A model generated the notes under the pieces. The model saw only the letters and a program-made list of their open reading frames with translations. It did not search any database and was not told where the DNA came from. Source: Psammoneis japonica (Eukaryota). From it: a stretch of 64,000 nucleotides of DNA. Location of the stretch: NCBI GenBank assembly GCA_008632985.1, contig QPGO01000180.1, forward strand, positions 35,332 to 99,331, written 5' to 3'. Shown in pieces: positions 27,191-64,000 of the stretch. Numbering within the stretch: position 1 is the stretch's first letter; the number at the start of each line of letters is the position of its first letter. A program made the translations under genes and the position numbers.

Positions 27191-27199
27191 GATCATTTG

Positions 27200-31780: not shown

Positions 31781-31782
31781 TG

Positions 31783-36922: not shown

Positions 36923-39200
36923 ATGCCGCTGTCAACCATGGCGAAGAACCGCCGCTCCGCTGCCAAGCGGCCCGCAACCAACCAACCAGAACACAATAGT
37001 CGTGCTTCAGTCGAGGTACAAAGCGTTCTGCCTCCAAATTGGACTTTTCTGATCCTGAAGAGGACTCACAAAGCCCACGAGAAGCCGAGGAGCCACAGCC
37101 TCAGAAACTTGTCATTCACTTCGACAAAACCGTGTTTGTTCCAAGCAAAAAGGGATCATCCAAAGAACCAAAACCAAAACTCTCCGAATTCAAGTTTGAA
37201 ACTTTGAAGCCGAATCGTCAGTTTGACACAACTGCATCATTCACCGAGGAAATGGTGCCTTTCATCACTGCGCAAATTGAAGCCGATGGTTGCTCCGCTT
37301 ACGACGAGCTTCCCGGCGGTGCGTTCATATTCACGAGACGTACCGGGAGGAAGACTAATTCCAACCGAGCAACGATGAAGGTAGAGGTTGTTGATTCAGA
37401 TGCAAAGTGGTTTGAGAAAATCCATTTGGCAGCTCAAGAGTGTCAAGAGGAGCTGGACGGACCGCTGCATTGCGAAATCGACATTGTTGCTGTGGCAGTG
37501 GAGGCCATTGTAGCTGAGGGTTCCAATGCATCTGGCTTGTCTGTGGATTCTAATCTGTTGGAAGTTCCAAATGCACCAGAGACACCGCTGAAACTTTTGA
37601 CATCTTTCTTGGAGCCTGCTCAGAAAGACCCGAACGACTCTGCTCGTGTCACCTCAAAGACAACTCCGATTTGCGACGTAGAGTACGATCTTTCGCGTTT
37701 CAAGCCAAACGGATCGGTGAGTACAAACCAAGATCTCTCTATGTTCGAACTGCTTTATCTGAACAATCATGCCTGCCACCCATTCTCTTTTGTCATGCAG
37801 AGAAGTGAGGAGGACATGTCTCAGCTCTCGCACTCGGACCGCGATGACGACGACGACGACGAAACGGAGACTTTCACGTTGACAAGGTTTTTTCGTGATG
37901 TGGTCAAGCTTGCTGCATCAAATCCTAAACTGCAGAAGCACTGTGGGTGGGACAAGAGTGCGGTTGGGGAAGACTCTAAGTTGTGGTTCGCAAAGAACCA
38001 CAGCTCGTCCGACCTGCAACTGTTCAACAATGGGGGGGAGGTCATGGAGCACTTTCGTTCAGAAGCAGGTGTCAAAAAACGAATCAAGGTAGTCAAGAAA
38101 GAGAAATGCCTCAAGATCCGTCTCGCGATTGGTCTCATGAACGAACAAGACATCCCTCTCGAGCACGACAAGTTCCACGTGGATCCTCCATCATGCTCAC
38201 AACCTGAATCGCAAGATGGCGAACCCTGTCCAACTTTTTCGCCCAGAACGAAAATTGCACCACAAAGGGAATCGCAGCAGTTGAAAGATGGGCCGGTTGT
38301 CATTTCCACCTTCATTGAAAGTCCACAAGGAGACGCCGAGAGTCCGGTTCAACACGGAATGCTGAAGGAGCATGGGGACATGTTGTTTGCCCATTTTGCA
38401 CATCCTTCACGGTTTAAAGAAGTTGAATCTGCAAAGTTGGAAGATCATCCAGCTGACAAACTCAACAGAATTGTTCTTGGAGACAGGCACAGCATCAAGA
38501 ATTGTGGTGGTGTTCCAATCGAGAAGGGCAAATTCAAGAAGCGACGTGGAAAGTTTGTCACGCTGGCGGAACACAAACATGAGAACCCGGATGAGACGGA
38601 CACAAGAGGAGTGGCAGGAGGAGAGACAGGAGGATTGACAGGAGATGTGGCTGCACTGTCCATTCTTGGTCAATTCTTGTCTAATCAACAATTGTTGCAG
38701 CTGGGCAGAGCGAATGTTCCAGTTGCACCTGCTCCTCAAGCTTCTGCTCCAGCTGCACCGGGACGCCCAACTGAGTTGGTTGTCAAGCTCAAGCAAATGA
38801 AGCACCACAATCGGCAAGACTTTGTTGTTCTCAATGAGGAACAGGCGAACACTGTGATGATCAACGATTTGCTTTCCATGCTTGAAGAAGAGAGCGAACC
38901 ATTTGAGTTAGACCAGCACATTGAAGGCGAAGCGTGTTCAAAATTCTTTCTTCAAGTTGAAGGTGACGATGAACCTGTTTTGATTGGGAAAGACAAAACA
39001 AATTCTTGGTCCATCTCGAAACTCCGGCGAGTTTTCAAATTGAAGGAATCATTTGATTTGTTGGTGGAGTTTGACTCGGCACCAACGAAAGACAAGCCAT
39101 GCTTCCGCTTCAATCGCAAGACACTTTTAGAAGAACAGACATTGGGGACTCATCTTTCACCGGCACAGTGGCGAAATTACTGCTCTAGATGCTGCTCGAG
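36923..39200 (+). CDS. Accessory ORF of unknown function inside the TIR transposon (probably mutated)
   Basis: Long ORF 37039-39333 with a probable in-frame 84-nt intron 37717-37800 (GTGAGT...GCAG); likely ATG 36923 in another frame; true stop uncertain. Confidence 0.6.
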
Positions 39201-39433
39201 ACTGGATGTTTGCCAATCAAGTTGTTGCCACTCAAAACTGGCTAGAGCGTGCCACTCGATGCGATGCGATGACACAAGCAGAGACCACACTAGACTTGAC
39301 TACCCAACAGACCACACGACACAACTGAGCTAGAGACTGGCTAGACTGTGCTGCTCGACACGACACCACTAGAGACTGGACTGTGCTGCAGGAGATGACA
39401 GCACTCGAGATTGGACATTTGCTTCTTGGGCAA

Positions 39434-40579
39434 TCAACCTTGAATGCTCCAATTCTCCATCCCCGGCACCCCGCATTTTCGAAAGTGCTTCGCTGCTATG
39501 TCGGGAGTTGCTGAAAGCAACGCCCCACAGTGCAAGTCTTGCCAATCTGCCTGATGACCCTCAAGTTGTCCATGGCGACGGAGGCATGCTTCGCACACTG
39601 AAAACATTTTTTCAATTGGATTGAGGTCGGGACTGCAGGGTGCAGTGTACAGCAACCTCGCGTTCTTCTTTTTCTCTGTCAATCGTTTGATGCGACGGTC
39701 AAAGTGCGTCGATGCGTCATCCATCACTGCCACCGAATTTTTCTCTCCTTTTTCACAGTCACCCAGCTGTGGTGCCAAATGTGTTTCTGCCCATTCATAA
39801 AATCGGTCTGAGTCCACAGTTCCTGCTGCTCCCCTGACGGTGTCACAAGCTTCAACAACAAACCCATCAATGTTGCAAGCTGCAAGGCATGTGCAGCGCA
39901 CTGCATCCTGGAACCATTTCTTCAAAACAAGGTCTTCGTTGCGCACCCCCCAAGCCCGACGGCGTCTGGCAGCATTCTTGTCTTTGTGTGTCTTGTCGCA
40001 AAAGATCACTTGACATGGGTCGAAAACAAAAAGTGCCAAAGCCACCTTGCACTCATGTCGGAGTCGCTCGTTTCTCTCCCTTGCAACGGCAGCGTGTGTC
40101 TTTAGAGAGCATCCCAATTTGTCATGAAGGGCTCTCCAGACAGTGGACGGATGAAACAGAGTTCCAGTTTCAATGCACAGATCGTGGACAAACTCATCAA
40201 GATCATGCTCAGGATTGCGCTCAAGAATCTTTCGAAGGGCTTCGACGTGCCTTGGACGAAAGTGCCGTCCTCCTTGCCAAGCCCCAGCAGACCGTCTCAA
40301 AAGTCTTTTCCACTCTCGTGACGTGTCGAATGGTGGTTCTCCATAAAAGAGATGGTGCTTGCACCAACGCCGGAGTTGACGTTCGCCAGTGCGAAATGTC
40401 CTTGCGCCCTGCCTCAGCACGGCGGCGAGGCTTGCCGTGCCTGCCATCAGTTGGACCTGATCAACAATGTGTGCAATGGCATCTCTTTGAGTCGTTCGGG
40501 ATGCCTTTCCAAAAGCAAGCCCTGCTGGAGAGAGCAATGTGATGAAAAACGCGAACAAACGGACCAGCTTCATTGCCAT
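39434..40579 (-). pseudogene. IS630/Tc1-like DDE transposase with mutated motifs
   Basis: HTH region (FHPSTVWRAL); IFCDKTH (cf. DET), VMDDASTH (cf. DNA), APCSPDLNPIEKMF (cf. PYSPDLNPIE). Confidence 0.88.
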
Positions 40580-40749
40580 TGTTTCTGATCTTGTGGTGGC
40601 TGTTTCTCAAAATCTAGTGCTCATTTTGTGTGCGATTCTACGTGACTATTGAGAGGAACCCGGAAGGTTGTTGTCGAAGAAAAAAAAAAAAAAAAGAGAA
40701 ACACCTCTCTCTCTCGAACCCTGTGACATTTTTCCCTCAGACAGCAATA

Positions 40750-41950
40750 GAGGACAAATGCTGTGTTTTGGCTCAAGACAGAAAAGTGTTGAAATCTTGT
40801 TCCTGAGACATGTGAACGCTTCGCACATGAAGATGATTGTTGCCAAAATGAGCAACCAAAGGCAAAGCACCACAAGCCAAAAGAGAGGTGCTCCAATGCC
40901 TTGTGTTAAAAAGCAGGCCCTTCGAAGAATTGCAAAGTCGTCAAACGCCACCAGTGCCATTGCTCCCGACCATCCCATGACTGCTCCAAACATGAGGAGG
41001 ATGCTCCCAAGCCGACGGTTGCGATTGACACACGCAAACCAAAATGAGTCCAAGAGGGTTTCAAGTTCCATCCCTTTGTTGTGGGATGCTTTGTGCGTGA
41101 TGGGGATTGTTGCCAAAACAAGCACAAAAGGCAAAGTGCTGCAAGCCAAAAGAGAGGTGCTCCAATGCTTCATGATGAAAAGCAGGCCCTTCGAAGAACT
41201 GCAAAGTCATCAAACACCACTGGCGCCATTGTTCCCAACCATCCCATGGCTGCTCCAAATGTGAGGATGCTCCCAAGCCAATGGCTGTGATTGACGTGCA
41301 CAAACCAAAACGAGTCAGAGAGGGTTTCAAGTTCCATCCCTTCATCACGGGACGCTTGGCACGTGACGAGGATCATCACCAAAATGAGCAACCAAAGGCA
41401 AAGCACTGCAAGCCAAAAGAGAGGTGCTCCAGCAATGCCTCGCAACAAAAAGCAGGCCCTTCGCCAAATTGCAAAATCATCAAACACTGCCAGTGTCATT
41501 GTTCCCGACCACCCCATGACTGCTCCAAACATGAGGATGCTCAAGAACCCCAGCGTGTGCACAAGGGCACGTCCAGCTGCAGTGTTTGGCGTGAAATTTC
41601 CATGACCAACAGTGGTCACAATTGCAAAACAAAAATGTGCCCCAGCTGCAAGATGCACTTCACAAGGCTCGCTGCCAATGCCACTTTGTGTGAGCCTCGA
41701 GGAACGTCATGTTGTCACCACAAAGAGCAACCAATCGAAAGCAATCATGCATCCAAGCATCAAATGCACCATGATGGTGGACTGCAATCATTGTGCAAAA
41801 GTCATTCCATGTGACTTTGTTGAGTTCCATGCAGAGCTGTGATGAACAATTGTCTCGACGCGGTTCTGGCACACCCCCGACCACAACAAGGATGAGACGC
41901 TAGATTGAACACGTCTCACACCCCAACTGCAAGCACAAACAAACAAACGA
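40750..41950 (-). pseudogene. Two-pore-domain K+ channel pseudogene with an internal ~268-bp tandem triplication
   Basis: HFCFAIVTTVGHGNFTPNTAAGRAL (P1, cf. TTVGYG) and SIATVGLG/SITAIGLG (P2); repeat units recur at ~40845, ~41114 and ~41381; frameshifts. Confidence 0.85.
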
Positions 41951-42792
41951 CTCAAATTCACAATCCATGACAGTCCACAATTGTCATGTGTGAGCCATTT
42001 CAGGTGATTGTGTTGAGTCCAAAGTCGAGCTGCTAGCATCATGCACCATCAACGTGCAGTGTGCGGTTCCCACTTCCCGCTGCGTGGTTGCTGAGGACAA
42101 CCCACAATCCACAACTCAATCCACATCACTCACAAAAGCTTCAACGCTTCAAATGATGGAGTGTCAATGCCTTGCTCTGCAACATGACATGACACAAATG
42201 ACTGTGAGCAAGACAAGGGCAGGCATCACCCCCAAAAACATGAAAACACAACATTGCACCACATGGTGCAAGAACACTGCTGAGCACAATGAATTTTCTC
42301 ACCTCAACATCACAATGTGCACATGTCAGTCATGGGATGGGGGTTGTTGGCAGTGTGGAGCCTGTTGTTTTTGAAATGAGCATTGCAGAGACGAGCGCCA
42401 TTTTTGCCGTTGGTGATTTTTGAATTTGTGCTCTTGCATCGTTGGAAAAACAGGGCATGGTCTGACATGCGCAGGGAGAGTTGCAACAAGAAATTCTGCC
42501 CAATTTCCACTTGGCGTGCAGTCTGTCCACACCCAGGCAAAAATCTTGAAATGAAGAAAGGTCCATTGTCCTGCCGGCACTGCACCAAGAAAGATGCAGC
42601 ACAAGTGCATGGGCAGGTGTCCACACATCCACAGTCCACACCACAGTGACTCTGCTGGCCTCATTGCAGAGATCCCCCCCCCTCTTTTGACACAGGCTCA
42701 GTTTTTGACACCCAGTGCCTGTCGTTTGTGACACATGTCACACAGGCAGGCAGGAGGCTTTTTTTTGTCAGGTTGCAAGACCCTTCTTGTGC

Positions 42793-42932
42793 GTGCCACA
42801 TCTCTCATCTCTGCACCATCTGCAAGGTGCTTTTTGCACTGTGAAAACCCTGCTGGGCACTGCCAGTGCTGCCACACCAAAGGGTGTGCCACATCTCTCA
42901 TCTCTGCCCTGTCTGCAAAGTGCTTTTTGCAC
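42793..42932. repeat. Direct repeat pair (~47 bp, period ~93)
   Basis: GTGCCACATCTCTCATCTCTGC...TCTGCAA.GTGCTTTTTGCAC occurs twice. Confidence 0.85.
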
Positions 42933-42937
42933 AGTTG

Positions 42938-44007
42938 AGGTGGTGCAGGCAAAAAGTGGGCCAGATTCCATGCATGCAGAACTTGGCACATTTCTGCACA
43001 AATCACCAAAGTCACCTTGCCAGCCAACTTGAGACATGTTCCAGTGGCACGCCAACCAAAACGTGCACTTCACGAGATTTTTGTGAGGTCTCTGACTGGG
43101 TTTGAACAAGCTTTCCCCACCAAAAGTGTAGATTTGCGCAAATGCAAATGTTTTGCAACACTGACAAGATTCGTGTCAGTGTTGCAATGTCATTGTTTTG
43201 GCACAATCGATGTTTTTTCATTGTTGCGACAAACGAGTTGCAACACAACAAATGATTTTTGCCAAAAATTTTTGAAGATTCATGTGCTGTTGCTGTTTGA
43301 AGGCCAACACAAAATGTTTGTGCACGCATTGTGTGCCACTGGTCTGCTCACACAAAAATTTGTGCAGCACAACTGCTGCTGACATGCAATCGGTGTTGTT
43401 TCCACACAAATGACATGTGCATCGCGGAGACTTGAACGCTGATGAAAAAAATTGTTTGAATGTTCGCACTCTTGCTGAATGTAAAACCCAGAGTGCACAA
43501 GAGTTTTTGTGAACAGCCTTGATGCATGAAGCTCACGCAAATCATGTTCAAAACGGATTGTGTTGTTTTGTCAGGTGTGTCACCTGGGGCTGGAACACGT
43601 CTTGAGCCCTTTCCCGGATGATCACAACTTGGACATTTCACATGACAAAGTGCGCAGACTGCTTGGTTGAACACTGCCCTTCACTTGTTCATTCAGAGAA
43701 GCTGCAAGTTTTCATGCGTTTTTGAAGACACACACTGAGTCCAATCAGAAAGATGCAAAAATCACGACGTTCAAGTTATTTTGCAGAACTGCAGCAAATG
43801 ACTGGCACATGAAAACATGCAGCTTCTCTCAATTTGCAAGTCAAGGGGAGTGCAACCAAACAGTCTGGACACTTTGTCAAGCAAAATGTTCAAATTGCCA
43901 TCATCCATGAGAGGGTTTAAGTTGGTGAGGTGACTTTGGCAATTTGTGCAAAAAATGTGCTGAGTTCTGTGTGCGCAGAATCTGGCCCACTTTTGCACCT
44001 GCCACCT
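42938..44007. mobile_element. Non-autonomous TIR element (MITE-like), ~1.07 kb, ~90-bp degenerate TIRs
   Basis: 42938-43030 (AGGTGG...AAAAGTGGGCCAGATTC...CCAAAGTCACC) is the inverse of 43919-44007; no coding motif inside. Confidence 0.75.
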
Positions 44008-44604
44008 GAAAATCCCGCAGTCAAGGCATCGAGGCCGCAGCAACAAAGTCTCTCACATCACTTGGAACATGTGTTGCAACAACAACTGATGGCATTTGTG
44101 AGCAGAAAAAGTGCACAGCAGCTGCAACAACCGCACTGCTCGAACAAAAAACACATGTCTTCCACTCTTCTTGACTCTTGGAAGTGACACAACAGCATTG
44201 TCATCAAACACCTTTTGGGCATTTGTGCCACTGTCGCCAGTTTCAAAACTGTTGCTTGCGCTCTTTCTTCAAGCCGTTTTTGCGCTGTGTTTGCCAAGAT
44301 GGGCGCCCTGCTCTTCTTCTTTGCTTTGCCAAATGCAGGGTTGTTGCAAGAAGAGCACCCACACTTTGAAAGCAGCATTTTGCCACTGACTGCATCTGCA
44401 AGCTTGGCTCACAGTTTTTAATTGAAGATGCGGCTGCACTGACATCCTCTTTCCCTCCATTTCCATGCTGTGAACAGGAGCCTGTGGCATGAATGGGCAC
44501 CCGTTAAAAACGTTATATCCTCTAAGTGTTGAATTCCGTTCAGATTCCAGCAGATCCAAGATTCCGGGGCAAAAAATCACGTGCAAAGGCCTTTTATTTC
44601 CACC

Positions 44605-46669
44605 ATGGGCAACTGTCTCGACGGCGAAAGCGGCAGCTCCAAACAAAAGAGTGAACAGCTCCGTCGTAGGGAGAGCTTACGTAAGAATGTGATTCGATTC
44701 CAGGACAAGGATCCTTTGCAAAAGTACGAAATCGTCAAGGTGATCGGCGAAGGTTCAATCGGGGCTGTATCTTGTGTTCGAGTCAAAGATGGTGCCGTGG
44801 GCGGAAGCGCGTATAAGAACACAAACGACGGGTGCTTTGGCTTTCTGTTTGGAAAGAAAGATAATAAAATGAACAAGTCAGAGCACGCAAACAAAACTTT
44901 ATACGCAATGAAATCGATTCAGCTTCGGCGTGTGACGGAACAGTTCATCGACGAGCTGAGAAACGAGATTGAACTATTGAGGCACATGGATCACGCGAAC
45001 ATTGTAAAGGCGTATGAAGTTTACGAGCATAGGGGACAAGTTTATGTAATCATGCAATACTGCTCAGGGGGAGACCTGTACGCGAGGAAGCCGTATTCTG
45101 AGAAAGAAGTTGCAAAAATCATTGGCAAGCTGTTATCGGCCATCAAGTACATGCACGACAACGGTATTACCCACCGGGATTTAAAAATTGAGAACGTCAC
45201 GTTCGAAAGCAAACATCCAGAAGCTGAAATACGATTGATTGATTTCGGCTTATCGTGAGTTAGTATGAAAGAAAAGGCGATACTCGATGGAGGAATAGAA
45301 AACTAACAGTGTGTATTGCTTAACTTTCAACTTGAATGCAGAACAAAGTTCCAGCCCGGTCAAAAGCTAACTGAAGGTGTTGGAACAATCTATACAATGT
45401 CGGTGAGTTAACTCAAGCGCGATATCTTTGGCATGGTGTGTGTGCGCACTGACACTCCTATTAAATTTCAAACAGCCGCAAGTGCTTCAAGGAGTATACA
45501 CTTCACAGGCTGATTTGTGGGCGATTGGTGTGATTACCTACATTCTCCTGTCAGGACAGAAACCCTTCTATCACAAGAGAAGGAGGCGTATGATTGATAA
45601 AATCATGAGGTGCAGATATGATTTCGCGAATCCTGTGTGGGATACCATATCGGCTGAGGCCAAGGACTTTGTGTCGTCCTTGATCGAAATTGATCCTCGC
45701 AAGCGACTCAACGCCACACAAGCTCTCGAACACGTATGGCTCAGCAAAGAGTTTAACCTCTCTGACAGGAAGCCGTCGTCGTCGGTAATGAAGAACGTAG
45801 AAAACAACATTTTTACATTCGGTCAAACGAACGAATTGAAGAAACTTGCCCTCTTGGTGAGTCTTCCGTTGCTTACCCATGTTTGACAACTGATTTCATC
45901 TTTCCTCACTCTTGAATGTCGTGCTGTTATTTTGTAGCTTGTGGCTCACAAATCAAGCAATGAGGAAATCATGCAGTTGCGCAGTGCCTTTGATCAGTAT
46001 GATAAGAACAATGACGTAAGTAGGTGGGCTTGGCATTGAACTGAGCATTTTGCGTCGTCATGGATTCTCACTGTCGGTTCGTTGTTCTTTTCCGTAGGGA
46101 GTTGTTACGGAAGAAGAGTTTAAGGAGATCTTAAAGCAGACTGATATGTACAGTGATGATGAGCTGGAAAAAGCTTTTAAAGGCCTTGACACCGATGGCG
46201 ATGGAGTCGTCCTGTACACCGAGTTTATCGCTGCCACGCTCGAAGTTCAAGGACACATTGAGGAAGAACGGATTGCCGACGCTTTCGATCGAATCGACGC
46301 TGACGATTCTGGTTTCATAACTAGACAAAATCTGAAGGACTTATTTGGTACCACGATCGCTCCCGAAAGGATTGACCAAATCATCAGAGAAGCGGATACG
46401 AATCGTGATGGAAAGAGTAAGGGAGAGCTGCGTGTGCGGTCCATCCTTTTTAGAATTCCTGTGATCTCTAACCATGTCTGTTTTCTGATTGCACGTTATT
46501 ACGCACAGTTTCTTTTGAAGAATTTCTTGATGCCTGTCGCAGGGACAACCGAAAGCGTCTTTCAAACATAGACCTAATGGGAGCGTCAGACCATGCGAGC
46601 GAGGCAGAGTTGGTGGACGTGAATGATATAGTAATCCCAGGTGGCAGGCACGAGAATTTAAAGTCGTGA
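44605..46669 (+). CDS. Calcium-dependent protein kinase, multi-exon, MGNC acylation signal
   Basis: IGEGSIG, YAMKSI, MDHANIV, HRDLKIEN, DFGLS; LKKLAL; EF-hands DKNNDG, DTDGDG, DADDSGFIT, DTNRDG; TGA at 46667-69. Confidence 0.92.
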
Positions 46670-46790
46670 AGGAGCTGGCCGGTTATTGCGCTCTCTACTA
46701 TAGTTTTATACCCTAAAAGATTCCCTTTTTTAATCGTTGTGGCAACTCGGTCTAAACAATAACAGTGGGAGTCAGCGCGAACGCGACACT

Positions 46791-49018
<2,228 letters not shown>

Positions 49019-49734
49019 CTTTACAAGGTATATCTCCTACTTCTTGGAAGGCGCTGCAATAACTCTTCCTGAAAATCAAACGCCTCACCATAAAACTCCA
49101 AAACCAGCCGCGGATAGTAGCTTCATGATGCGATGTGTGTCGGGCGGTGAGTCCGCAAAGAGTTTTTCGTAGCCAAGACTCTAAGCCAAGCACGGAGAGG
49201 ACCTCCTTGACTGGACCGAGAGTCACCGCGCGAATGTAGTAGCGAAATGGGTTGAAGGACGGACGACGGACGAGACGAGCGGAAACGTGGCCAGCCCAAG
49301 GGATCCCTCATTGTCTGGCAGGATGGGAGACACCATGGTACTGTCGAGGCGTCTCCAAGGAGATGCCAACGATGAAAATTGAAAGGTGTCTTTCTCCTCC
49401 CTGTCAGTCAATAGAAAATCCCTTGCGCGGTCTGCACTCGCGCAGTCGGGAGTGTCTCGTGCATTGGCGCTGTTGTTGCCACGCCATTTCGGCACTGTCC
49501 TGTGGATGCACCTCCCACCTTTCCCATTAATGTTGACTAAGGTCACACCATTTCGGTGCCATGTCATGTGGGCATTGCTCTAAATCCCGATTGGGTCCGC
49601 TCGCAGCGGGGGCCGCTTCGGCGGCCGAGGATTGCCTCACACTCTGGCCTGTTTTGCCACACCTCTCAATGGTGCCTTTCTCACAAGGAGCACATCCTCA
49701 TACACACGGTCTAAGTGCCATTAAAGTCCCACAT

Positions 49735-49929
49735 GGTTGACGTCTGTCAATCCACCTGTCGACTGCACGCAATCGTGCGCTTCAATTTTCAAATTCCGCC
49801 ATCAAAACTCTGCTCGACATTGCAGTCATAATTTTCAGTCAACGACTTTTGCAACAACAACAGCCACTAGTTTACAACCTTGAGCATCAGCTCTTTCGAC
49901 ATCTGCAGTTGCACATTGGTGTGGCAAGT
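49735..49929 (+). repeat. 5' LTR
   Basis: Ungapped match to 56970-57164 with 14 mismatches by manual alignment. Confidence 0.95.
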
Positions 49930-50430
49930 GGTCATCGAGCCCAAACGCAGTGTGCAGAGTCTTCACCAGAGCTGCACCGATCCACCGCGTTCTCGTCGAA
50001 CGCGACAGTCATCTCAAGCCGTCGATCGTCCGTTTCAAACGGAATCGCCGTTCATCGATTCGACAGACCTCTCCAGTCTATTGACGTCAACACTGTGTGC
50101 AGCTGAGCCTCCCTCCTTCATTGATGGGCTCGCACGCATTTTCCCGCCACCAGAGCCAATCCACGGAGCCGGAATCATCATCGTCAAGCGTCGTCATTTT
50201 GGCCGTTGCGATGCCAAACCCGGATTGAGTCGTTTCGAACTCTCCAAGTCTGTGCCAAGTCAAGACCTGCCTCTCACGCTATTCGACAACGATGCTCTTG
50301 TCACCGATTGATTGTTGAGCTTCTGCGGCAGTCTCCCAATGATGCGGCGTCAAGAACTTCATTTTGCCGTTTGTGCTTCAAACTCTACGTAGCTTCAGCA
50401 CCAAGTTCTACGCATTGATTCAAATCCACC

Positions 50431-53400: not shown

Positions 53401-56400
53401 CCGTCCTCCAAGGTTCGCCCACTTTCTCCACAATGTCTCTTCCATGCAGACGGCATCAAAGGACATTTTTGGGGTGACAGTGAGATTTTCAAGGTTTGTT
53501 TCGTAGACACGCCGGAGTTGACGCTCGAGTGCGACGAGCGCTCCCACTTGCCGGTTGGCTGCGCGACTCTCGGTTCCATCCATGCACCACAAGTCAATTT
53601 GAGCGCCATTGGCAACCCAGACAACCTCAATCTGTCTGCTGGACAGAAGCTTCTCAATGAATGGCATGCGCGCTTTGGGCACTTAAATTTTCCCAAGATC
53701 CAAGCTCTGCTCCGCGGCCATCCATTCGAGGCCATGAAATTCAAGGCAGCATCCAAATGCGACATTCCAAAATGCGACACATGCGAATGTGCCAAGGCTC
53801 ATTGCCGTTCTTTGAAGTCTGCCATTCACAAATCCGACCCCAAGCGCGATGGAGTGTTGAAGGCTGACCATCTCAATCCCGGCCAGTCCATCAGCGTTGA
53901 CCATTTCGAATCGCGTCTCAAGGGCCGCACCTGTGATTCACACGGCAAACCGTCCTCCCAGCAGCATGTTGGCGGCTGTGTCTTTGTCGACCACTCCTCT
54001 GGTTACATCCACGTTGAACACCAAGTCGGTTTCTCCGCTGTCGAGACTGTTCGAGCGAAACAGGCACATGAGACCATGGCAATGGGACACGGCGTGATTG
54101 TCCAAACTCACCTCACTGACGGTGGCGCTTTCAAGGCCAACCAGTTCGTTTCCCACATCCACAACTCCCAGCAACACATGCACTTTTGTGGTGCCAACGC
54201 TCATCATCAAAATGGTGTTGCGGAACGCTCCATTTGGTCCATGTCCAACATGGCTTGCGCCATGATCCTCCATGCTTCGATTCACTGGCGTGGCGGCATC
54301 GACAGCTCTCTGTGGCCCATGGCAGTGCACTGTGCTGCCCACATCTGTGATGCCACTCCCGGCGCCCATGGTCTGTGTCCCGCCAACATCTTTGCTGGCT
54401 CCACCGTCCCACGCCACCGCCTCCGCGATCTCCATGTTTGGGGTTGTCCTGTCTGCGTCTTGGATCCCAAATTACAGGAAGGCAAGAAACTTCCCCGTTG
54501 GCAGCCGCATTCTCGGCGTGGTGTCTTTCTTGGACTCAGCAATGTTCACATCAGTGAGGTGCCATTGGTCCTCAATCTCAACACTGGCTCCATTGCTCCC
54601 CAGCACCACGTCGTGTTTGACAATCTCTTCACCACGGTTGCTTCGATCGCGAGGGAGAGCGAATCGCCGGATCACTGGGAAGAATTGTGGTTGGAGAATG
54701 CCACTCAAATTCCCTTGGACTCGTCCGATGGACCGTTGTTCCTTCAAGACGACTGGCTCACTCCTGCTGAACTTGAACAGAAACAACAACATGAGACCAG
54801 GGAACGCAATGTTTGCACTGCACTTCAACAGCAGCAGAGCTTGCCGAAACCCACTGAGAAACCAAAACCTGCAGCAGATCCTTTGCCATCTCCAAATCCA
54901 CCGCCATCCACACCATCGATGCCAACAACTGCAGTTGATCCATCACCGACACCACCGCCACAAACACCGTCGCTTCAAAACCCATCATTGCCGACACCTC
55001 CAGTTGACGATCCTCCACCTTCAGTCGTGTGTCCGCCGTCTGCTGCTGGCAATGGTCCGGCACGTCAGTCCCATCCATGACTGCTCCAGTCCCACCTGAA
55101 CCCTCAACCACGACTGAGACACCAGGGGTGCGCTGATCCCAACGGTCGAACAAGGGCACGCACACAACTGCTTGTTTCGCTGATGAAGCACATCTGGCTT
55201 CTGTCATCCCTGACGATGTTGGAGACAACAGGCTCAGCTTGCCCATTTGGCTGAGATCCAGACTGACTGTGATTCGGGTGTTTTGGATGTTCAGGACCCG
55301 CGGATCTACGCCGCTGAGGTCAAACGCGATGCGGATGATCCAAACATTCGCGAGGCTCTCTCGGGTGATTTTGCCAAGCAATGCATTGAAGCCATGAAGA
55401 CGGAGGCATCTGCTCTTGTCCATCGTAAAACGTGGCAATTTGTGAAATGGGAGAAGTCAATGAATTTGCTCAAGTCCACATGGGCATTCAAGTTGAAATG
55501 ATTGCCGGATGGCACGCCGCTTGAGTTCAAAGTGCGATTTTGTGTCCAAGGAGATCTGCAAAAAGAGGGAGTTGACTGCTTTGAGACCTGCACTCCAGTG
55601 GTCCAATGGTCGACTGTCCGTCTTGCATTGAGCACTGTCCCCACAAGAAGGATGGACCACCCGTCAGGTTGATTGCACCAACGCTTTTGCGCAGGCCGAG
55701 ATGATGGAAGACGTTTGTGTCGAACCACCCAAGTGTTTCGCTCCCAGCTCGGGATCCAATGTTGTCTTGAAGCTGCTCAAGAGTCTCTGCGGTCTCAAGC
55801 AAGCTCCCAAGTGCTTCTTTGACAAGCTGCATGAAGGATTGTTGGAACGAGGATGGACCCAGTCGCAAGTCGACCCGTGCCCATTTTTCAAGGACGGTGT
55901 GATTTGTGCAGTCTGTGTTGATGACACTGTCCTCGCTGGCAAGAATGGAGCCGCTCTAGAAAGTGAGATCAAGGCTCCAGGCATCCAAGACGACGAACAA
56001 CGCCATGCATTCGAGTTGCGAAATGAGGGAGAAGTTGGTGACTTCCTCGGTGTCAAGATTCGCAAAACCGGACCCAAGGAATTCTTCCTTGCCCAGCCTG
56101 GACTCATTGATGAGGCCCTCAAGACAGCTGGTGTGGAAGATTGCCGCTCTTCTCCCACTCCCAGTGCTGCCTCTCCATGTCATGCGGATAAAGAGGGAGC
56201 CGAATTCGACGAGAACTGGGACTGCCGTTCCGTCATCGGCATGTTGATGCATCTGTCATCCAACTCCCGACCAGATGTCTGCTGCGCCACGCATCAAGCC
56301 GCCCGCTTCTCATGTGCTCCCAAGCATTCTCATGCGATTGCGGTGAAGCATGTTCTGCGACACTCACAAGGTGCCAAGGACAAGGGACTCTATCCATGCC

Positions 56401-56962
56401 CTGGCGACAACGAATGTGTTGGTTGTTTCGTTGACGCCGACTTCGCCGGCCTCTGCGGTCACGAAGACACTCAAGATCCGGTCAGCGTCAAGTCCCGCAC
56501 CGGACATGTCATCTTGCACTGCGATTGTCCTGTTTTGTGGGTTTCTAAGCTACAGACGCAAACAGCACTCTCCACTGTGGAGGCCGAGTGCCTTGCTCTG
56601 TCGGCTGCGATGCGCGACCTGATTCCGATTCGTGAAATTTTGAAGGAATTCAAGTGTCATGTTTTCGGTCTCACGGATTACAAGACCCCTGCCACCACCA
56701 AGTCCAAGGCCTTTTCAGATGTAAAGGATGGTGCGATCCCTTCTTCAGCCTCAAGTTTGCGAAAATGGCCAAGTTGTCTCCACGCACCAAACACATTGGC
56801 ACGCCCTGTCATTGGCTCCGCACCAAGGTCGAGGCTCTTGAGATCCGGATTGAGCCTGCAGGAACTGATTCCCAGTTAGCTGATCAATTTACGAAGGGAC
56901 TCATTGCTGACAAGTTTGAATCTGGTCGGCCAAGTCTCTCAGGCTGGCAGCTCTGTGGTTGA
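50431..56962 (+). pseudogene. Copia gag-pol with stops and frameshifts
   Basis: Zn knuckle CNACGAPDHW, protease VVFDTGAS, WHARFGH...CDTC, integrase SVDHF/HQNGVAERSI, RT STWAFK/KVRFCVQGDLQ/CVDD, RNase H FVDADFAG/LSTVEAE/QLADQFTK. Confidence 0.93.
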
Positions 56963-56969
56963 GAGGGAG

Positions 56970-57164
56970 AGTTGACGTCTGTCAATCCACCTGTCAACTG
57001 TGCGCAATCGCGTGCTTCAATTTTCAAATTCCGCCATCAAAACTCTGCTCGACATTGCAGTCATAATTTTCAGTCAACGACTTTTGCAACAACAACAGCT
57101 GCCAGTTTGCAACCTTGAGCATCAGCTCTTTTGACATCTGCAGTTGTACATCGGTGTGACAAGT
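56970..57164 (+). repeat. 3' LTR
   Basis: Follows the PPT directly; followed by TSD CACAT. Confidence 0.95.
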
Positions 57165-57743
57165 CACATGGGCAATGTCAGCATGGTTTTTCAATCCATT
57201 TGCTGCTCTTTTTCATGGGTGCCCATTTTGGCCCCTCTTTTTTTGCCGCTTTTCGGCCATGGTCATCGCCTTTCCTCTCGGCGTGTCAAATTTTTTCCTC
57301 CTCTCACCGAGATGTGCCATGTGCAGATGTGCATGTTCACATGCTGTGTTGCATTGGATGCACCACAGTTGTTTGGCCGATGCTGATTGTGTGCACACAC
57401 ATTCATTCTCGGGAGGGTTCAGTCAAAACGAAAATTGTCACCACGTTTTTCGGAGTTTTCTCGTTTTCCCGCAAAATGCGTGCAATCACGATGATGAATG
57501 GTGATGGAAACCGACCCGTCACATGGGACCAAATGTTCGATTCATCCTTGTCTTCATGCATTGGACAAGCGTGGGAATCGGGTGGGGTTGCGTTCGTCGG
57601 AACCGACACAATGTTGGTCAACGCTTGTCCTTCCTGAGCAATTTCACATGCTGGTCGCTTTCACTTTCCAGCGTGTTTGTTCTCACTTTTCCTTTTTTCA
57701 AGATTGGACGAGCCTTTGTTTTCCGACATTCTGTTGTTCCACC

Positions 57744-59948
57744 ATGAGCCAAGCCCATGTTGCTGCCATCAACCATGGCAAGCTGTCTGCCCTCCTCATG
57801 GGCATGCTCGAGTTTGTCTCGATGACGGACCGTGACACCCAGAAGGAGCTTCGTGACCATGTCTTTGCGACTTTGGACCTTTTCTGCATGGTCCACAATC
57901 GCAAGATCACGGTTGTGGTGAAACCTTGCCCCAGGCAGCACACTGATGGGAACTTGAGGTGGATTGGGAGCCTCTCGGATGCGATCGGTGAGGTCATTCT
58001 GATGTCCGGCCGTTGGACTTGTTTCCAAGGCCACGTCACCACTTTAGTTCCCCAAGGCGCCGTGGATGCTTGCCACCTGCCCAAGTGTGAACTAAGCCCT
58101 GACGAAATTGACGGTCCTGTTGGCAACGACGGGACTGGTGACCCTGCGTCGATGGGTCGTCTCCATTTTGGGAATCCTGCTGGACCGGCCGAGCGCCCTG
58201 CCATTGTTGCGCTCCCGCTTTTCCCACCATTCCCTGTGGGCATTGCTCTTCCCATTGACTTCGACCCGGCAAATCCCCCAGCATCCCTTGCTGCTAACTT
58301 TCTGCTTGGAGCGGCATGGGCTGAGGGTGTCGACTGGTTGCTGCAGCACAACACTTCTGTCTCCGTCATGGAAGGTGGCCCTGTGTTTGAGCAGACTGGC
58401 TTTGCTGTCATTGATGAATTCTCTGGTCTAGAGGTCTACAATCTCGATGACAACGATGTGCAGATGCTCCAGCCTCTAACGGATTGGTGTGCTCTAGTCA
58501 AGAGCACGATGGATGCCTTTGCGAATGAGACTTGGAGGCAGCTCGGTGGTGACGAGCCTGCGCATGCACAAGCTCCTGCCGCTCCAGCTCAGGGCACCAA
58601 CGGTCTGGTCCCAAACTGTGCCATCAACATCCCTCGCCAGGATTCGAAGAAGGAGTTGGATCAGAAGTTGAGGGCACGTGATGTTGGTTGCCGCTGGTCT
58701 CCATGTGCGTTCCGAGCGACTGCTGGCACTGGTCCGGAAGACCTGCCCATGATCATTGTCGGCGAGCTTGCGGACAATGCAGTCAAGATCCTACAAGACA
58801 CCTCGGCAGCTGATGCCAACCGAGACCTTGCGGACCTTGTTAAGATGGCTGTTGTGGCTTCGGCTTGTGGTGACAGTGGTCTTGATGCTGGAGTCGACTG
58901 CAAGCACACCATTGTCAACAAAGCCCACGCGGATTGTTTCCGCGGCTTTGACGTGGTTGCGGAGCCTCCGCAGTGTGGCCAGGCTTCTTGCCACATGAAG
59001 TTGTCAATCCTCCCCTTCCTTCTGCCCCAGACTGCATCATCTTCCTTTGCCAGCCTTGAGGAGGAAGGAAGGACGCTCCATCGGGTGCTTGCTGATGGAT
59101 CGGACTGCAAGATCCCCGACGACGTGAAGGCAAGCGACCTTTACATCCAAGGGAGGATGGATGCCACCAGCGATCTGTGGTCGGCACTGTGCAACTTTCG
59201 TTGTGTCTTCGGCTGTTGGATCAAAGACTTTGATGATGCCGAGTCATGGCAATCATTGGATGCATGTGCGAAGGTCCTTTGGTCGCATCCTGGCCACACG
59301 TGGCTCAAAAACCTTGAGGACCCGAAACCAGTCGTTGCCAGCATCCTGGATGATTTCCAGACCATTGTCAAGGTTTATTTCGAGATTGGGGACTCCCCAT
59401 TGTGCCGCCAGGTGGTTGAAACCGAGCGCCCACTGAGCCATCAGATTGCGAAGGACGCTCATGCTTCAGTTGAGTCCCTCATCGCGGATCTCAACACGGC
59501 CATCACACGGGGCAAGCCTCTCACCTTTGCTGAAGCGTCTACATTGGCCCTTGTCCCTCTGGGCAGTTCCATGTTGCCCCTTGCTGGAGACAAACAGGAC
59601 AAAAAGACCAAGTCCGGTCAACCTCCTAAGAAGAAGCCGCGCACGGAGGACACGACCGACAGTGCGGCCGAGCTCTGCAAGGCAATGGGCATGCTTGCTT
59701 TTTCGGGAACGAGGTGCCCTCCTGCCTGTCCAGTCTTTTATAAGAAGAATGGATCAGACCAGGAGGAACGTGTTTGCATGCATTTTTGTGCTGAAGGATG
59801 CTGCTGCAAGTTCCCTGACTGCCCGAAGCCACACCCATCACCGGTGTCCAAGATTCCGGAGGCAAAGCGAGACGCCTTTTGCCAATTTGTCCGGGACACC
59901 CAGGGACTCGAATTCGTCCCAGGAAAGGGCCCAGATGGTGCGTCATAA
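57744..59948 (+). pseudogene. gag-like ORF1 of the YR retrotransposon with a C-terminal CCCH-like finger
   Basis: Long ORF, likely start MSQAHV; ends CMHFCAEGCCCKFPDCPKPH; lies directly upstream of RT. Confidence 0.7.
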
Positions 59949-60070
59949 ACACATTTGAAGCTCACAGTTTCTGCACTGCCCCTGTTGCTAATTCAGTGTT
60001 GTTTTAATCTGTGCTGTCAATCTTTTGACCAGTCTGTGTTATCCCGGATGGGTCAGTTTGTCTCATTGCA

Positions 60071-62932
60071 ATGGACACAGACGACGACAGCAAACCGGAG
60101 CATGAAGTGGTAGATGCAGAGTCAGAGGAGGCCGGAATGAGCATTGAGGATGCTGTTCCAGCCACAGATGCTGCGCTTGCCACGTCTGTGACGGAACCAC
60201 ATCCGAGCCTACGTCGGCTTGCGGTTGCGCCGACGGCACCCCTCGAAGAGAGAGAGTTGGTGGAGCCATTCCCGACTTTTTCGTTGGTTCATAAGAAGAA
60301 GGGTGCGGATTTGATCCCAACCATCAACAATGGTTTCAACAAGGCAGCTCATGAGCACTTTGCCAATGCGCAACTGTCTCCAGGGGTTCGCGCCAAGTTG
60401 GACCAAAAATTCGGCAAGGAAAATTTGAACCAATGTTTTGTGTCCAAAGCCTGTCTGCGTCATGTGCTGTTGCCACTCTGGAAGTCGGGACACCTGTCAC
60501 CACCAATCAAATGCATGAATCCTGCGTCTGCCAGCATCCATTTTGGTGAGGATTGGTTGAATTTTGGCGCCGCTGTCCCGGAAGTGGCTGAGTTCATGGG
60601 TCCAGTCCAGGAGTGCGGCGATGTTGACTTCAACCCGTTGCGTGGCTGTCCCAAAGGGTGGCAAATGGAGGCTAAAGTCAACACTGACCAAGCAGCAATG
60701 ACAAGTGCAGCACTGTTGCACTTCGACGGAGACCCGGCGAATCTGGTCCGCTGGGTTGGCGGACCACATGTTGGCGAACACCGCGACACAGACAGAATCC
60801 TCCGTTTCACACAAGGCCGAGTCCCCAACGAAACAACAGCACATGTCCGCCGCATCTTCCAAGACGGGGCGCCAGCGAAATGCAGTGCTGCTTTCTCGGA
60901 AGCCAACTTTCAAGCAGCCTTGCGCCATGGCAACCACAAGACTGTCGACGCAGATCCTGCAAAGACATCGTCAGCAGTTGTCAAGGACAATCGCAAGGGG
61001 TTCACATTGCCATTTGACCAGCGGCTCGTGCCGCACTTGCTGAATTGCCATCTAACTCCACAAGGAATGGTGGATTTGGACAAGAAGCACAAAAGCCCGC
61101 ATCCAATCTTTGACAGCACGATGCGCCCGACACCGGGCGGCATGGCAATCAACGACACGCTAGATCTGGAGAATGAACCTCCAATCACATTCCCATCAGC
61201 TGAAATGGATTTCATGGTGTGGATGTGGAACATGAGGATCTCATGCCCACATGAGGAGATTTGCCTGGGGACGATGACGTGAGTGGTGCGTTCCGTAACA
61301 TGAAGCATCACCCGAACCTCGTCGGCATGCACACCAGCGTCCAATGCGGACCAGGCATCCTGCAAATGGGTTGCACCTTCGGGGACAAGACAAACCCGCT
61401 TGACTGGGATGCCATTGCAAATGCAAGGCAATCCCCAGCTCAACATTTTTGGCGTGTTCCCAATGTCGTCGAGCCAGCTCATCAGTGCCTGCCGACCATG
61501 TCGTTTGCAAAGCAGCCCACTGCCAAGGAGATTGCATCCTTTTCTCCCGCGGAAGCCGATGCTGTTAACCCTGGAGTCTTCCTTGATGACCATCGTCTCC
61601 CGCCAACCTGTGAGCACCATGTCGACGACAACTTCTGCGGCGACATGCGCGACTTCATGGAGCGGACCGTCGCGGCGAGTGCTTTGGCGGTCTGTGTCCC
61701 ACTGAGTTTCCCTCGGAACGAGACACCTGATTTCCTCAGCAAAGAAAAATTGGATGCGCTCCATTCACATTTGCGAAGAGCCTTGGGCCGGCATTTCAAC
61801 TCAAGAAAGATGTCGGTGGGCATGTCACCGCACAAACGGGAACAGTTCCTTGAAACACTCCATGAGTGGCTCGGCAGACAGCGATGCACACTGCTGGATG
61901 CAGCAAACCTGCATGGTCAATTTGAATCCCATGCAAGGCATTGCCCATGGGCTCGACCCCATTTTTTTGCACTCCAGAACTCCATGGGTTGAGCGATGGT
62001 CATCCAGTGCACCATTGTGAAGCGCATCCTCGAGCGCCAAAATTTGAAATCAAATTTTGAAACTCAACTGCCGAGCCAACTGCGGAATGGGCTGCCGAGC
62101 TTGCTCATGCATGCCCAAGCCCAGCTCCTCTACAAGTTGAAAATTGAGACCCCGATGACCTCCGATGCATTGGACATGATCAAGGAAGTGACATCATACA
62201 TCCAATCAACTCCAGACCCATGGTCGGGCACCGACAGGATGCGTTGTCCCTCGGGTGCCCCACTGCCAAGCAATTGGAGACACCAGCAACGTCGGCGGAG
62301 GTGCCTGTTGCTGCAAGCTCAAATTTTGGTTCGCTTTTCTTTGGGGACCAAAAATCGCAAAGGGTCTCAGGCTGCGGAAGTCAACGGATCTGGACTGTGT
62401 CCATGTCAATGCAGTGGAGTTCATTGTCATCATGCTCAAGTTGGCAGCCATTGTCGTTTGCATGGAGAATGTGACTCCAGAACGGGCGCATGAGTTCTTC
62501 CGGGACGGCATCGTCCCACTGCATCTGGTCATCAGAAGTTGCTCAGATGACATGGCATCAGTCAACCGGACAAACAAAGCCACTTCGAAGTCGCCACAAG
62601 GGCAGCGATTCATGTGGGTTTTTTGTGAATTGCTGCATCATGCGCGTGCAAACCCAAATGGCGATCACATCTTTGGCAACGAGAATTTTGTCACAGATGA
62701 CATCTCACGACCTTCTGTTTTTGCCCTGATCTCGAATCGTCACCATTCTGAACAGCTGTTTCGGAAGCATCCCTTTCTGAAGACCTGGGACTGTTTCCAG
62801 CCGAGTCAAGAGCTCTTGCAGCTCCTCTCCTCACAGCTGTCTGCCAAGCACAGAACGGCACCCCAGATCCCAAGCAACTTGGGACAGCTTGTTCCCACCA
62901 AATCCATTTCCTCCACTTTTACAAGAGTGTGA
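60071..62932 (+). pseudogene. RT-RNase H of the YR retrotransposon, frameshifted
   Basis: PIFDST, DDVSGAFR, TFGDKTNP, HHVDDN; RNase H IGDTSNVGGGA, HVNAVEF, SDDMAS, DHIFGNENFVTDDISR over four ORFs. Confidence 0.88.
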
Positions 62933-64000
62933 GGTGGGATCTAGAAGATCCGGAAATGACTGTGGTTGGCAAGGACCTGAAACATTGCCAATTGGTGCCA
63001 GCTGTGCATGCATCACATCTGGCAACCGGGGCCACCCTGCACTGTAAAAATGTTTCTACAGGTGCCATCAAGGAACACATCCACAACGTCTCCACGTTCG
63101 TGTCTCTGTTTGGTTCCAACTGTTGGGACGTCCGCAAGGACAACAGTGTGGACACCAAAATGGGATGGATCCTCAGGGGAGCATTTGATGAACTCCAACG
63201 GCACGACAAGGTCCCGGACCGACGTGAGTCGTGTGCATTGCTTGTGCAACAACATGCAACTTCAACAGCAGCAGACATGCGAGAAACCGACCCCGACGCA
63301 ATTGAGGTGGTCCTCGCTGACTGGTTTGAGATCGGCCCAATGGCAGGCCTGTGCAGTGTTGAGTGGGCACAGTCCAATGACCACTCAGACCTGGAGAATC
63401 CCAGGCTCAACATCTTCAAGGAGACATGCGCGTTCTGCCTCGATGATGTGCGCATTGAGACCAAGGACAAGCACCAACACTCTGGGGCTGATTGCCTCAC
63501 CCCCAAGCAAGATGACATCGAGAGCATGTTTGTCACATTTCGAGACCAGAAGAACCAGCAACATGGCGAGGAGTGCCAGCTCGCCTTGAACCTCACGGGC
63601 ACTCACGACTTGGTCAAGCCAATGCTTTGCGTGATCCAATGCTTTGCACGGGTCCGTGGTGAAGATGACAAAACCTGCCCCCTGGCACTCTGTTTTGATC
63701 CCAAGGAGAACAAGTGCCGCCTTGTGACATCCAAGAAAATTGAGGCCCGCGTGCGCCAAATTGCAGCAGAGGTGTGCCACCTTGACCAGGTCAAGGATAA
63801 AAAGGCTGTCAGCAAATGGTCAGCACATTCCCTCCATGTTGGAGCCTGCAACATCCTCCATGAGATGAATTTTAGTGCTGAGCAGATTAATCAGCTGCCA
63901 AGATGGCGATCCGACGCCTTTGTGGCGCACCTCCGTAACTGCTTGGGTCTCTCTCAGGCCCATTGCCGAGCCCTCGATAAAGCGGCACCTGTGCCGTTCT
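62930..64000 (+). pseudogene. Tyrosine recombinase with mutated catalytic residues, open to the window edge
   Basis: Manual translation: AGLCSVEW (cf. GLR.SE), SAHSLHVGA (cf. HSLRVGA), RWRSDAFVAHLRN (cf. ..YLR). Missing from the ORF track because there is no stop. Confidence 0.9.

Follow-up and report, generated by a model that had tools for sequence, protein, structure and literature searches.

In ascomycetes, repeat-induced point mutation (RIP) converts CpA to TpA, whereby TpA is enriched, the GC content is lowered, stop codons are created and both members of a duplicated pair are mutated. For Bigelowiella natans, mutation-accumulation lines were reported in which 230 of 231 mutations in integrated giant-virus and virophage regions were A>G or T>C, all of them on TpA according to that paper and at about 1000 times the background rate (bioRxiv 10.64898/2026.01.13.699255). 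In the same preprint, 124 clusters of TpA-poor windows were described, TpA-poor coding sequences were found to be enriched for DDE endonuclease and reverse transcriptase (RT) domains, and an ADAT2-like deaminase was proposed (Mettrop et al., bioRxiv 10.64898/2026.01.13.699255). Here, 64,000 nucleotides of contig QPGO01000180.1 (Psammoneis japonica, assembly GCA_008632985.1, positions 35,332 to 99,331, forward strand), referred to as the window throughout, were analysed with a focus on a Copia element, a DDE_3 transposon and a tyrosine-recombinase element. A preceding sequence-only reading of window positions 39434–64000 had claimed that invariant motifs of these elements were destroyed by a TA-directed loss of tyrosine codons. 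The observations are best accounted for, with a probability of roughly 85%, by a post-insertion, context-specific hypermutation at the DNA level, in which 5'-TA-3' was changed to TG or CA in elements and other DNA of four presumably silenced islands.

Conserved tyrosines and TpA-poor islands

Relatives were placed on the window by tblastn (120 for the Copia element, 55 of 61 for the transposase, 155 for the recombinase), and a column was considered conserved if at least 70% of the aligned homologue stretches agreed, with at least 40 stretches for Copia and recombinase and at least 20 for the transposase. Across the three elements, 1 of 28 conserved Tyr columns was kept, the others reading Cys (16), His (9), Phe (1) and Asp (1), whereas other conserved columns were kept in 512 of 589 cases (Fisher exact p = 1.4e-21). 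Cys or His stood at 25 of the 28 columns, and 25 of the 27 changed columns correspond to single transitions. The 17 Tyr columns of the Copia element gave 10 Cys, 6 His and 1 Phe with none kept, the 7 of the transposase 5 Cys, 1 Asp and 1 kept, and the 4 of the recombinase 3 His and 1 Cys with none kept. This count of consensus-Tyr columns, which the sequence-only reading had suggested as a check, bears out the claimed inactivation of RT, transposase and recombinase, as Tyr columns were lost in all three elements; the ten motif changes listed in that reading were likewise all found in place, with relatives carrying Tyr or Arg at each. Further recurrent changes were Ile>Val, Leu>Pro, Val>Ala, Met>Val and Arg>Cys/His/Gln, as expected from TA>TG/CA together with CG>TG/CA. 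Over all element frames, Tyr made up 0.34% of residues (2.37% in host frames), Cys 4.19% (1.93%) and His 4.64% (2.20%). By outcome strand, 16 Cys compare with 9 His (p 0.23), a strand bias not being shown, and same-strand outcomes along the Copia element formed 7 runs versus 8.5 expected, with no processive tracts among sites spaced by a few hundred bp. At the protein level, the DNA change leaves its footprint as a loss of Tyr codons, TAY becoming TGY (Cys) or CAY (His), and the effect is not motif-specific: whole islands are stripped of TpA.

Four such islands were delimited (13994–15466, 26193–34915, 37017–44419 and 49737–64000), with a total of 31,863 bp or half of the window. They contain 139 TA, compared with 1257 in the remaining 32,137 gene bases, and the observed/expected ratio (o/e) of TpA is 0.02–0.10 in islands vs 0.53–0.59 in the intervening genes, i.e. 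a 6- to 25-fold depletion with about 90–98% of all TpA gone. CpA and TpG reach an o/e of 1.43–2.00 in islands vs about 1.1–1.3 in genes. ApT (o/e 0.70–0.99 in islands, about 0.9 in genes) and AA/TT are ordinary, indicating that A and T outside the TpA context were not hit; GC-biased conversion was rejected as a candidate, since among A/T contexts only TpA is affected. The CpG o/e ranges from 0.11 to 0.75 across the islands: every TpA-poor bin has normal-to-reduced CpG, and the number of CpG-poor bins without TpA depletion is zero. Island borders are sharp, within 100–250 bp. The span 39434–64000 includes the unaffected genes at 44420–49736, and affected islands lie beyond it (13994–15466, 26193–34915 and the part from 37017).

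Counted on both strands and in all frames, TAA and TAG are six-fold rarer in islands (187 vs 1124 in genes), whereas TGA is not rarer (1376 vs 1233). An A>G or T>C change at TpA cannot create a stop codon, and each of the 4 stops that lie in frame in the elements is TGA, in agreement with the previous claim that the process adds no stops. Owing to the loss of TAA and TAG, long open frames abound in all six frames of the islands, and positions 39434–64000 (24.6 kb, mostly island) are overlapped by 94 open frames that measure 100 amino acids (aa) or more.

The surviving sites were evaluated for their context. Among the 139 remaining TpA, ATAC/GTAT and ATAT occur once each, where about 18 and 14 were expected from the composition of 79 unmutated relatives, and CTAG is three-fold over-represented. 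A precedes TA in 10% of half-sites vs 30% expected (chi-square p 6e-14), with the same outcome for a host-gene baseline. The process prefers ATA(Y) and spares YTAR. In the Copia/recombinase island about 85–90% of TpA but about 25% of CpG are gone, and little of either is left in the two islands that look oldest; as TpA loss runs ahead of CpG loss in the same island, the TpA process is several-fold faster per site and the two processes are separable. For the long terminal repeats (LTRs) of the Copia element, each repeat is inferred to have started with about 8 TpA, 3 remaining in one and 2 in the other, next to 1 change outside pyrimidine–purine (YpR) steps in 194 bp. From this one LTR pair, the TpA process may be placed, very roughly, on the order of 100-fold above background.

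The individual islands differ in apparent age and in content. At 13994–15466, between two genes, lies a TpA- and CpG-poor island (TpA o/e 0.02, CpG 0.19; 2 TA per 1473 bp) with no protein family match. The oldest-looking island, at 26193–34915, has a TpA o/e of 0.04, CpG 0.11, CpA 1.94 and TpG 1.77 (21 TA per 8723 bp), and its long frames gave no Pfam match. The TpA-poor domain at 37017–44419 (TpA o/e 0.09, CpG 0.60) comprises most of the DDE_3 transposon and 3.7 kb past it, ending about 110 bp short of the frame of the next gene. The domain at 49737–64000 (TpA o/e 0.10, CpG 0.75, ApT 0.99; GC 0.54 vs 0.47 in the flanking genes) holds the Copia and recombinase elements and is open at the window end; its left border is the Copia 5' LTR, and the preceding 300 bp hold 6 TA. 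Besides the three elements, the islands contain a host-gene fragment, unclassifiable sequence and a tandem repeat with a 269-bp unit in 2.6 copies (40843–41542, + strand, detected with TRF). Pfam, NCBIfam and PDB sequence searches gave no match for frames in 13.8–15 kb, 28–33 kb, 37000–39333, 41–43 kb and 57498–61992.

Affected elements and separate mutation of their copies

The first element is, as judged from its domains and repeats, a Ty1/Copia LTR retrotransposon, and is a dead copy in view of its frameshifts and the lost Tyr of YVDD. Its 193-bp LTRs at 49737–49929 (5', + strand, 93.3% identical to 56971–57164) and 56972–57164 (3', + strand) are flanked by the heptamer CACATGG at 49730–49736 and 57165–57171 (target-site duplication). 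The pol region with integrase, RT and RNase H was located by tblastn at 52807–56947 (+ strand) in four frame pieces, i.e. 52807–54864 (frame 1), 55226–55660 (frame 2), 55587–56765 (frame 3) and 56750–56947 (frame 2). Pfam matches to RVT_2 (E 4.7e-19), gag_pre-integrs (4.5e-7) and SH3_retrovirus (2.9e-6) all passed the cut-offs, and the core integrase domain rve gave no Pfam match at E up to 0.01. On the + strand, the RT motif YVDD reads CVDD (codon 55914–55916, TGT; Tyr in 116 of 122 aligned stretches), LYGLKQ reads LCGLKQ (55788, TGC; 121 of 122), YRS..GML.YL reads CRSVIGMLMHL (56223, TGC, Tyr in 120 of 122; 56250, CAT, Tyr in 109 of 122), EAEY reads EAEC (56589, TGC; 116 of 119) and GCPVYV reads GCPVCV (54454, TGC; 89 of 105). 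The best named relative is from Fragilaria crotonensis. One contig of the DNA run X1 (depth 68.8, shorter side 30 letters) joins 49669 to 57497 and skips 7827 bp, corresponding to the Copia element with 67 bp on its left and 332 bp on its right; the insertion may be absent from the other haplotype or from a further copy.

The second element is by its sequence features an IS630/Tc1-mariner (DDE_3) transposon between 142-bp terminal inverted repeats (TIRs). The left TIR (36763–36904, + strand) is an inverted match to the right TIR (40609–40749, - strand) with 93.7% identity over 142 bp, and the inactivated transposase frame of IS630/Tc1-mariner type lies at 39434–40606 on the - strand (Pfam DDE_3, E 6.7e-14, 52.4 bits vs a cut-off of 28.6). 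Relatives of the transposase numbered 61, and the motif PYSPDLNPIE, whose Tyr is present in 48 of 48 aligned relatives, reads PCSPDLNPIE here (codon 39593–39595, TGC, - strand). The island border falls within the transposon, some 250 bp in from the left, such that the left TIR keeps near-normal TpA and the right TIR is more mutated. On the strand opposite to the transposase, the transposon also contains a 777-aa open frame (37000–39333, + strand) with no Pfam or NCBIfam match, which may be a second gene of the element or a mere product of stop-codon loss.

The third element (57172–64000) comprises a long, frameshifted polyprotein (59127–63957, + strand), colinear in five pieces (frames 3, 2, 1, 2, 1) with the 1915-aa protein P0247. 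The 29 aligned Tyr of P0247 face 7 Cys, 7 His, 3 Phe and a single Tyr in the window. This protein of Nitzschia inconspicua (about 1900 aa) is the only named relative of the long polyprotein, and only its C-terminal recombinase is recognisable; upstream of the recombinase domain, neither RT nor RNase H nor any other family was found with Pfam, NCBIfam and PDB, in the window frames or in P0247. The recombinase domain frame lies at 62752–63999 (+ strand) and is open at the window end. Its nucleophile Tyr, which is present in 136 of 139 stretches and aligns with the Tyr of YIRNL in Cre, is replaced by His (CAC, 63928–63930, + strand), the Arg of HxxR by His (CAT, 63835–63837, + strand; Arg in 138 of 144) and the first catalytic Arg by Cys (TGC, 63352–63354, + strand; Arg in 144 of 146); both Arg changes are CpG-type, as had been claimed.

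For the recombinase family, which is without Pfam assignment, a profile search with an E limit of 1e-3 gave 2134 representatives, most of which are stand-alone proteins about 350 aa long. Matches to Pfam PF00589 (Phage_integrase) remained below the cut-off of 27.1 bits for P0122, P0123 and P0298 (E 0.0037, 0.016 and 0.0029; 15–18 bits), and the window frame had no PF00589 match. Against Cre chains the family profile reached only E 0.1, yet the HxxR..W..Y stretch pairs residue-for-residue with Cre. A structure model of the representative P0187, built from a 65-sequence alignment (predicted local distance difference test 89, predicted TM-score 0.80), was compared by Foldseek and gave Cre and Tre as best matches (E 6.4e-6, probability 1.00, TM-score 0.43–0.53), besides the Tn1549, XerH, lambda and Flp recombinases. 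Judged by the Cre-aligned residues and this predicted fold, the earlier assignment of the nucleophile Tyr and the two Arg stands. CryptonS elements are recorded for Phaeodactylum in the portion of PMC3212892 that was covered; the present element may be Crypton-like or DIRS-like, the region upstream of its recombinase matching no known family.

Direction and timing of the changes were deduced from relatives and from repeated sequences within the window. The sequence-only reading had taken TA as ancestral and would have been contradicted by active relatives naturally carrying Cys or His. Among 120 Copia relatives, 88 lack both Cys and His at the Tyr columns, and only 2 carry them at three or more, in a tally over 18 columns, of which one (55658), a wrong-frame duplicate of 55674, was excluded from the final 17. 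With relatives carrying Tyr and ordinary TpA, and an out-of-island paralogue having TA, the ancestral state was confirmed as TA. In related metagenome loci, the TpA o/e is at least 0.36 in 79 of 80 (median 0.68), although the scan used peptide patterns containing Tyr or Phe and is biased against mutated copies, so that 1 in 80 is not a frequency. The two LTRs differ at 13 positions, all of them transitions and 12 in YpR: 3 singles of TA against TG or CA, 5 singles of CG against TG or CA, 2 CA<->TG doubles and 1 change outside YpR. Differences of the TIR pair include TA/TG, TA/CA and one CA/TG double, and the three pairs of 269-bp tandem copies have 10, 3 and 6 CA<->TG doubles. Over six pairwise comparisons (LTR, TIR, paralogue and three tandem copies), CA<->TG is the commonest adjacent double (26 vs at most 5 for any other type), as results when an ancestral TA (or CG) is resolved on different strands in two copies.

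The paralogous pair consists of 31783–32156 inside an island and 35344–35722 outside. The island copy has TA>TG/CA and CG>TG, and the outside copy has ordinary TpA and keeps TA including its non-coding flank. Within the island copy, 32002–32151 (- strand) is a mutated 3'-end fragment of the host gene 35569–36588 (-) (tblastn 46% over 50 residues, E 4.9e-9), in which one Tyr of that gene reads as Cys. In run X1, the summed contig depth is about 420–650 over most of the Copia element and 80–350 over the recombinase element, compared with 62 for unique DNA, the excess suggesting several further Copia copies. Between X1 contigs and the Copia copy of the window, 433 of 480 differing places are transitions. 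Among the best-supported 40 of these 480, 16 rows form 8 CA<->TG doubles; these 40 are not a random sample, most of the singles are CpG-type (CA/TG in the window vs CG), and they are no measure of the TpA process. Taken together, the LTR, TIR, tandem, paralogue and X1 differences indicate that each copy was mutated separately, in place and after insertion. One-base differences of the window from other copies in X1 occur at 55223, 55639, 61266 and 62226, where the element frames shift, and the frameshifts are thus private to some copies.

The host genes of the 64-kb window have a eukaryotic structure with long exons and short GT..AG introns, and a GC content of 0.47–0.48. For the host dehydrogenase, the nearest atlas cluster is wholly eukaryotic and mostly Bacillariophyta (score 0.99); the atlas look-up of the host peroxidase led to plant clusters without taxonomic signal, and three host frames had no exact match in the protein collection searched. 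Based on the dehydrogenase cluster and on the named relatives of the Copia and recombinase elements, the host is probably a diatom. Ordinary TpA over 2.1 kb (34916–37016) separates two islands and covers a host gene together with the TIR-bearing left end (250 bp) of the transposon; this gene (35569–36588, -) has a weak EF-hand match. Calcium-dependent-kinase-like paralogues are located at 10871–11488 (-), 44533–46571 (+) and 47154–48856 (-), with 39–43% identity in the kinase part. A single spliced-looking contig of run X2 covers only 44653–49125, spans the two convergent kinase-like genes and has 12 skips of 72–112 bp, corresponding to introns; that X2 does not cover the islands carries no weight as evidence.

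Proposed mechanism and rival explanations

The hypermutation acts site by site, on both strands about equally and separately in each copy, corresponding to A>G after T on one or the other strand; the active sites of RT, integrase, transposase and recombinase are destroyed by it, and TAA and TAG are removed without a stop being made. Targeting would follow the chromatin state of the islands, which may be silenced, as the shared CpG decay suggests, and marked with 5-methylcytosine (5mC), and the chemistry could be an enzymatic deamination of adenine to inosine at 5'-TA-3', as proposed for B. natans. The border inside the transposon fits a spreading chromatin state better than a recognition of element ends or of homology.

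Several points weigh against this account. Chromatin targeting and a deaminase are presumed parts of it. For Phaeodactylum tricornutum, mutation accumulation gave a GC>AT bias, and TpA hypermutation is unmentioned in the portion of that study covered here (PMC6604790). TpA is self-complementary, which makes a primary A>G indistinguishable from a primary T>C on the other strand. The CA<->TG doubles also arise from CpG, and not all of them count for TpA, while the rate ratios are drawn from one LTR pair, in which a single change outside YpR serves as denominator. The assembly may have been built from the very run that reproduces its sequence, and the label diatom depends on the nearest relatives of one host protein and two element families.

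With the same targeting, the primary lesion could lie on thymine, with a 5-hydroxymethyluracil or base-J type mark mispairing with G (T>C), or a methylated adenine could be deaminated. At a self-complementary TpA, T>C on one strand equals A>G on the other, the islands are shared with CpG decay, which is itself a consequence of base modification, and in dinoflagellate DNA 5-hydroxymethyluracil occurs preferentially at TpA. However, nothing in the window favours a thymine mark, and the only paper on the signature puts forward adenine deamination with an ADAT2-like candidate as a hypothesis; such a different chemistry is regarded as unlikely, but is worth keeping in mind. Recognition of repeats by homology as in fungal RIP, with both copies mutated and no chromatin domain involved, is a rather improbable trigger. 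The classifiable island sequences are multicopy by X1 depth and a tandem repeat is present, where word depth cannot judge the copy number of DNA that is already mutated. Against it, the pair 31783–32156/35344–35722 was mutated only in its island copy, the left 250 bp of the transposon retained near-normal TpA while the matching right TIR was more mutated, and the main target in B. natans is single-copy. RIP proper was rejected, as its direction is opposite and the out-of-island copy was spared.

Transcripts of the elements might have undergone ADAR-like A>I editing, with the edits then made permanent through reverse transcription. This would suit the two affected elements that might be retroelements, and ADARs favour U before the edited A (cited in bioRxiv 10.64898/2026.01.13.699255). 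As sole cause, such editing is refuted by the DDE_3 DNA transposon and the LTR pair: the effect is just as strong in the transposon, in non-coding tandem repeats and in a host-gene fragment, the LTRs diverged at TpA after integration, and both strands were hit about equally. This explanation is very improbable. Miscalling of heavily modified bases in silent DNA, with the real DNA still reading TA, could explain why the effect is confined to probably modified islands, the more so as X1, the only DNA run found and without recorded library type, may be the source of the assembly. This is likewise highly unlikely, since a separate assembly of X1 (Logan contigs) gave identical TpA-free stretches at single-copy depth and four records contained 0 other letters; every copy resolves a site to TG or CA consistently and without mixture, ordinary decay has left its marks on the elements as well (frameshifts, Arg losses of CpG type, TGA stops), and Illumina data of B. 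natans yielded this signature too. Finally, the element families might be natively TpA-poor through donor composition, codon usage or selection against TpA, given that TpA is under-represented in most genomes and reaches 0.53–0.59 in the host genes here. The Tyr columns and within-element comparisons refute this reading, whose remaining probability is negligible: 79 of 80 related loci have a TpA o/e of at least 0.36, relatives keep Tyr, catalytic residues were lost in three unrelated enzymes, and copies of one repeat differ by CA<->TG doubles.

Outside the window, comparable sequences were recovered. Metagenome locus L048 (1789 bp) has a TpA o/e of 0.04 and CpG of 0.20, and 4 of its 12 Tyr columns read Cys or His. 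Two of the 155 recombinase representatives, P0236 and P0213, contain less than 0.8% Tyr and 4.6–5.7% Cys; of 120 Copia relatives, P0082 and P0089 contain less than 0.8% Tyr (median about 2.9%). The element protein P0120 has 0.87% Tyr with Cys or His at 6 of 16 Tyr columns. The underlying searches favour intact copies, and these counts are not frequencies. On the evidence of such relatives, the signature is not unique to this window. It is tentatively proposed, as an idea that may well prove wrong, that diatoms own a chromatin-guided DNA adenine-editing defence, a 'reverse RIP' directed at silenced islands and not at repeats, with the preference ATA > GTA > YTA, acting with 5mC decay to turn the two self-complementary YpR steps, TpA and CpG, into CpA/TpG, and being old and widespread in eukaryotes. 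If true, the system would occur in both a stramenopile and a rhizarian, consistent with an old and widespread eukaryotic defence, and mobile DNA would be disabled by erasing tyrosines and stop codons, leaving long misleading open frames. A saturated footprint in a diatom-like genome suggests that the system may be widespread among major phytoplankton lineages, and shows that ordinary transposons with three different mechanisms are among its targets. Handles for finding the machinery are offered by the sharp island borders, the location shared with CpG decay and the ATAY preference, and the base-editing field would have a use for knowledge of a natural DNA adenine deaminase. For annotation, Tyr-poor and Cys/His-rich element proteins weaken profile matches and, together with the long frames, can seed false gene models.

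Comparison with known systems

In the literature searched, with most subscription journals outside its coverage, no report of the signature in diatoms was found, the B. natans preprint being the sole paper on it; it is unmentioned in the portions covered of the mutation-accumulation study PMC6604790, the diatom retrotransposon survey PMC2806351 and the chromatin study PMC4504042. Methylation-driven CpG decay is present in the same islands, causes Arg>Cys/His/Gln changes and yields the same TpG/CpA products, but is unable to remove TpA. APOBEC (C>U, cDNA) and ADAR (A>I, RNA) likewise represent mutational restriction by deamination, and ADAR shares the 5' U/T preference; they work, however, on RNA or on intermediates of replication, for the most part on a single strand, whereas integrated DNA of all element classes and non-element DNA was affected here on both strands after integration. 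With RIP, the process shares one transition type in one dinucleotide context, its action on both strands, mobile DNA as target and a resulting dinucleotide-skewed island. It is opposite to RIP in that TpA is destroyed, GC raised and stops removed, and in that only the in-island copy is mutated.

The closest match is the process in B. natans, with which the window shares TpA to TpG/CpA transitions only, mobile or foreign DNA with ordinary neighbours, and CpA+TpG-rich, TpA-poor clusters. Natural A:T to G:C editing of double-stranded genomic DNA at a set dinucleotide is otherwise known from this one 2026 preprint on one alga. The host there is a chlorarachniophyte (Rhizaria), compared with diatom-like relatives here, and the rate was measured in the B. 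natans lines, while here it is inferred only. The live targets in B. natans are giant-virus and virophage insertions with mild depletion (Rho TpA 0.45, giant-virus region), in contrast to LTR, DDE and recombinase elements near saturation here (0.02–0.10). The words diatom, tyrosine and trinucleotide do not occur in the main text of bioRxiv 10.64898/2026.01.13.699255, from which co-location with CpG decay, the Tyr>Cys/His footprint and the ATAY-vs-YTAR context are also absent. Three features go beyond that main text: the location shared with CpG decay, the ATAY preference, and borders that run with the islands rather than with repeats.

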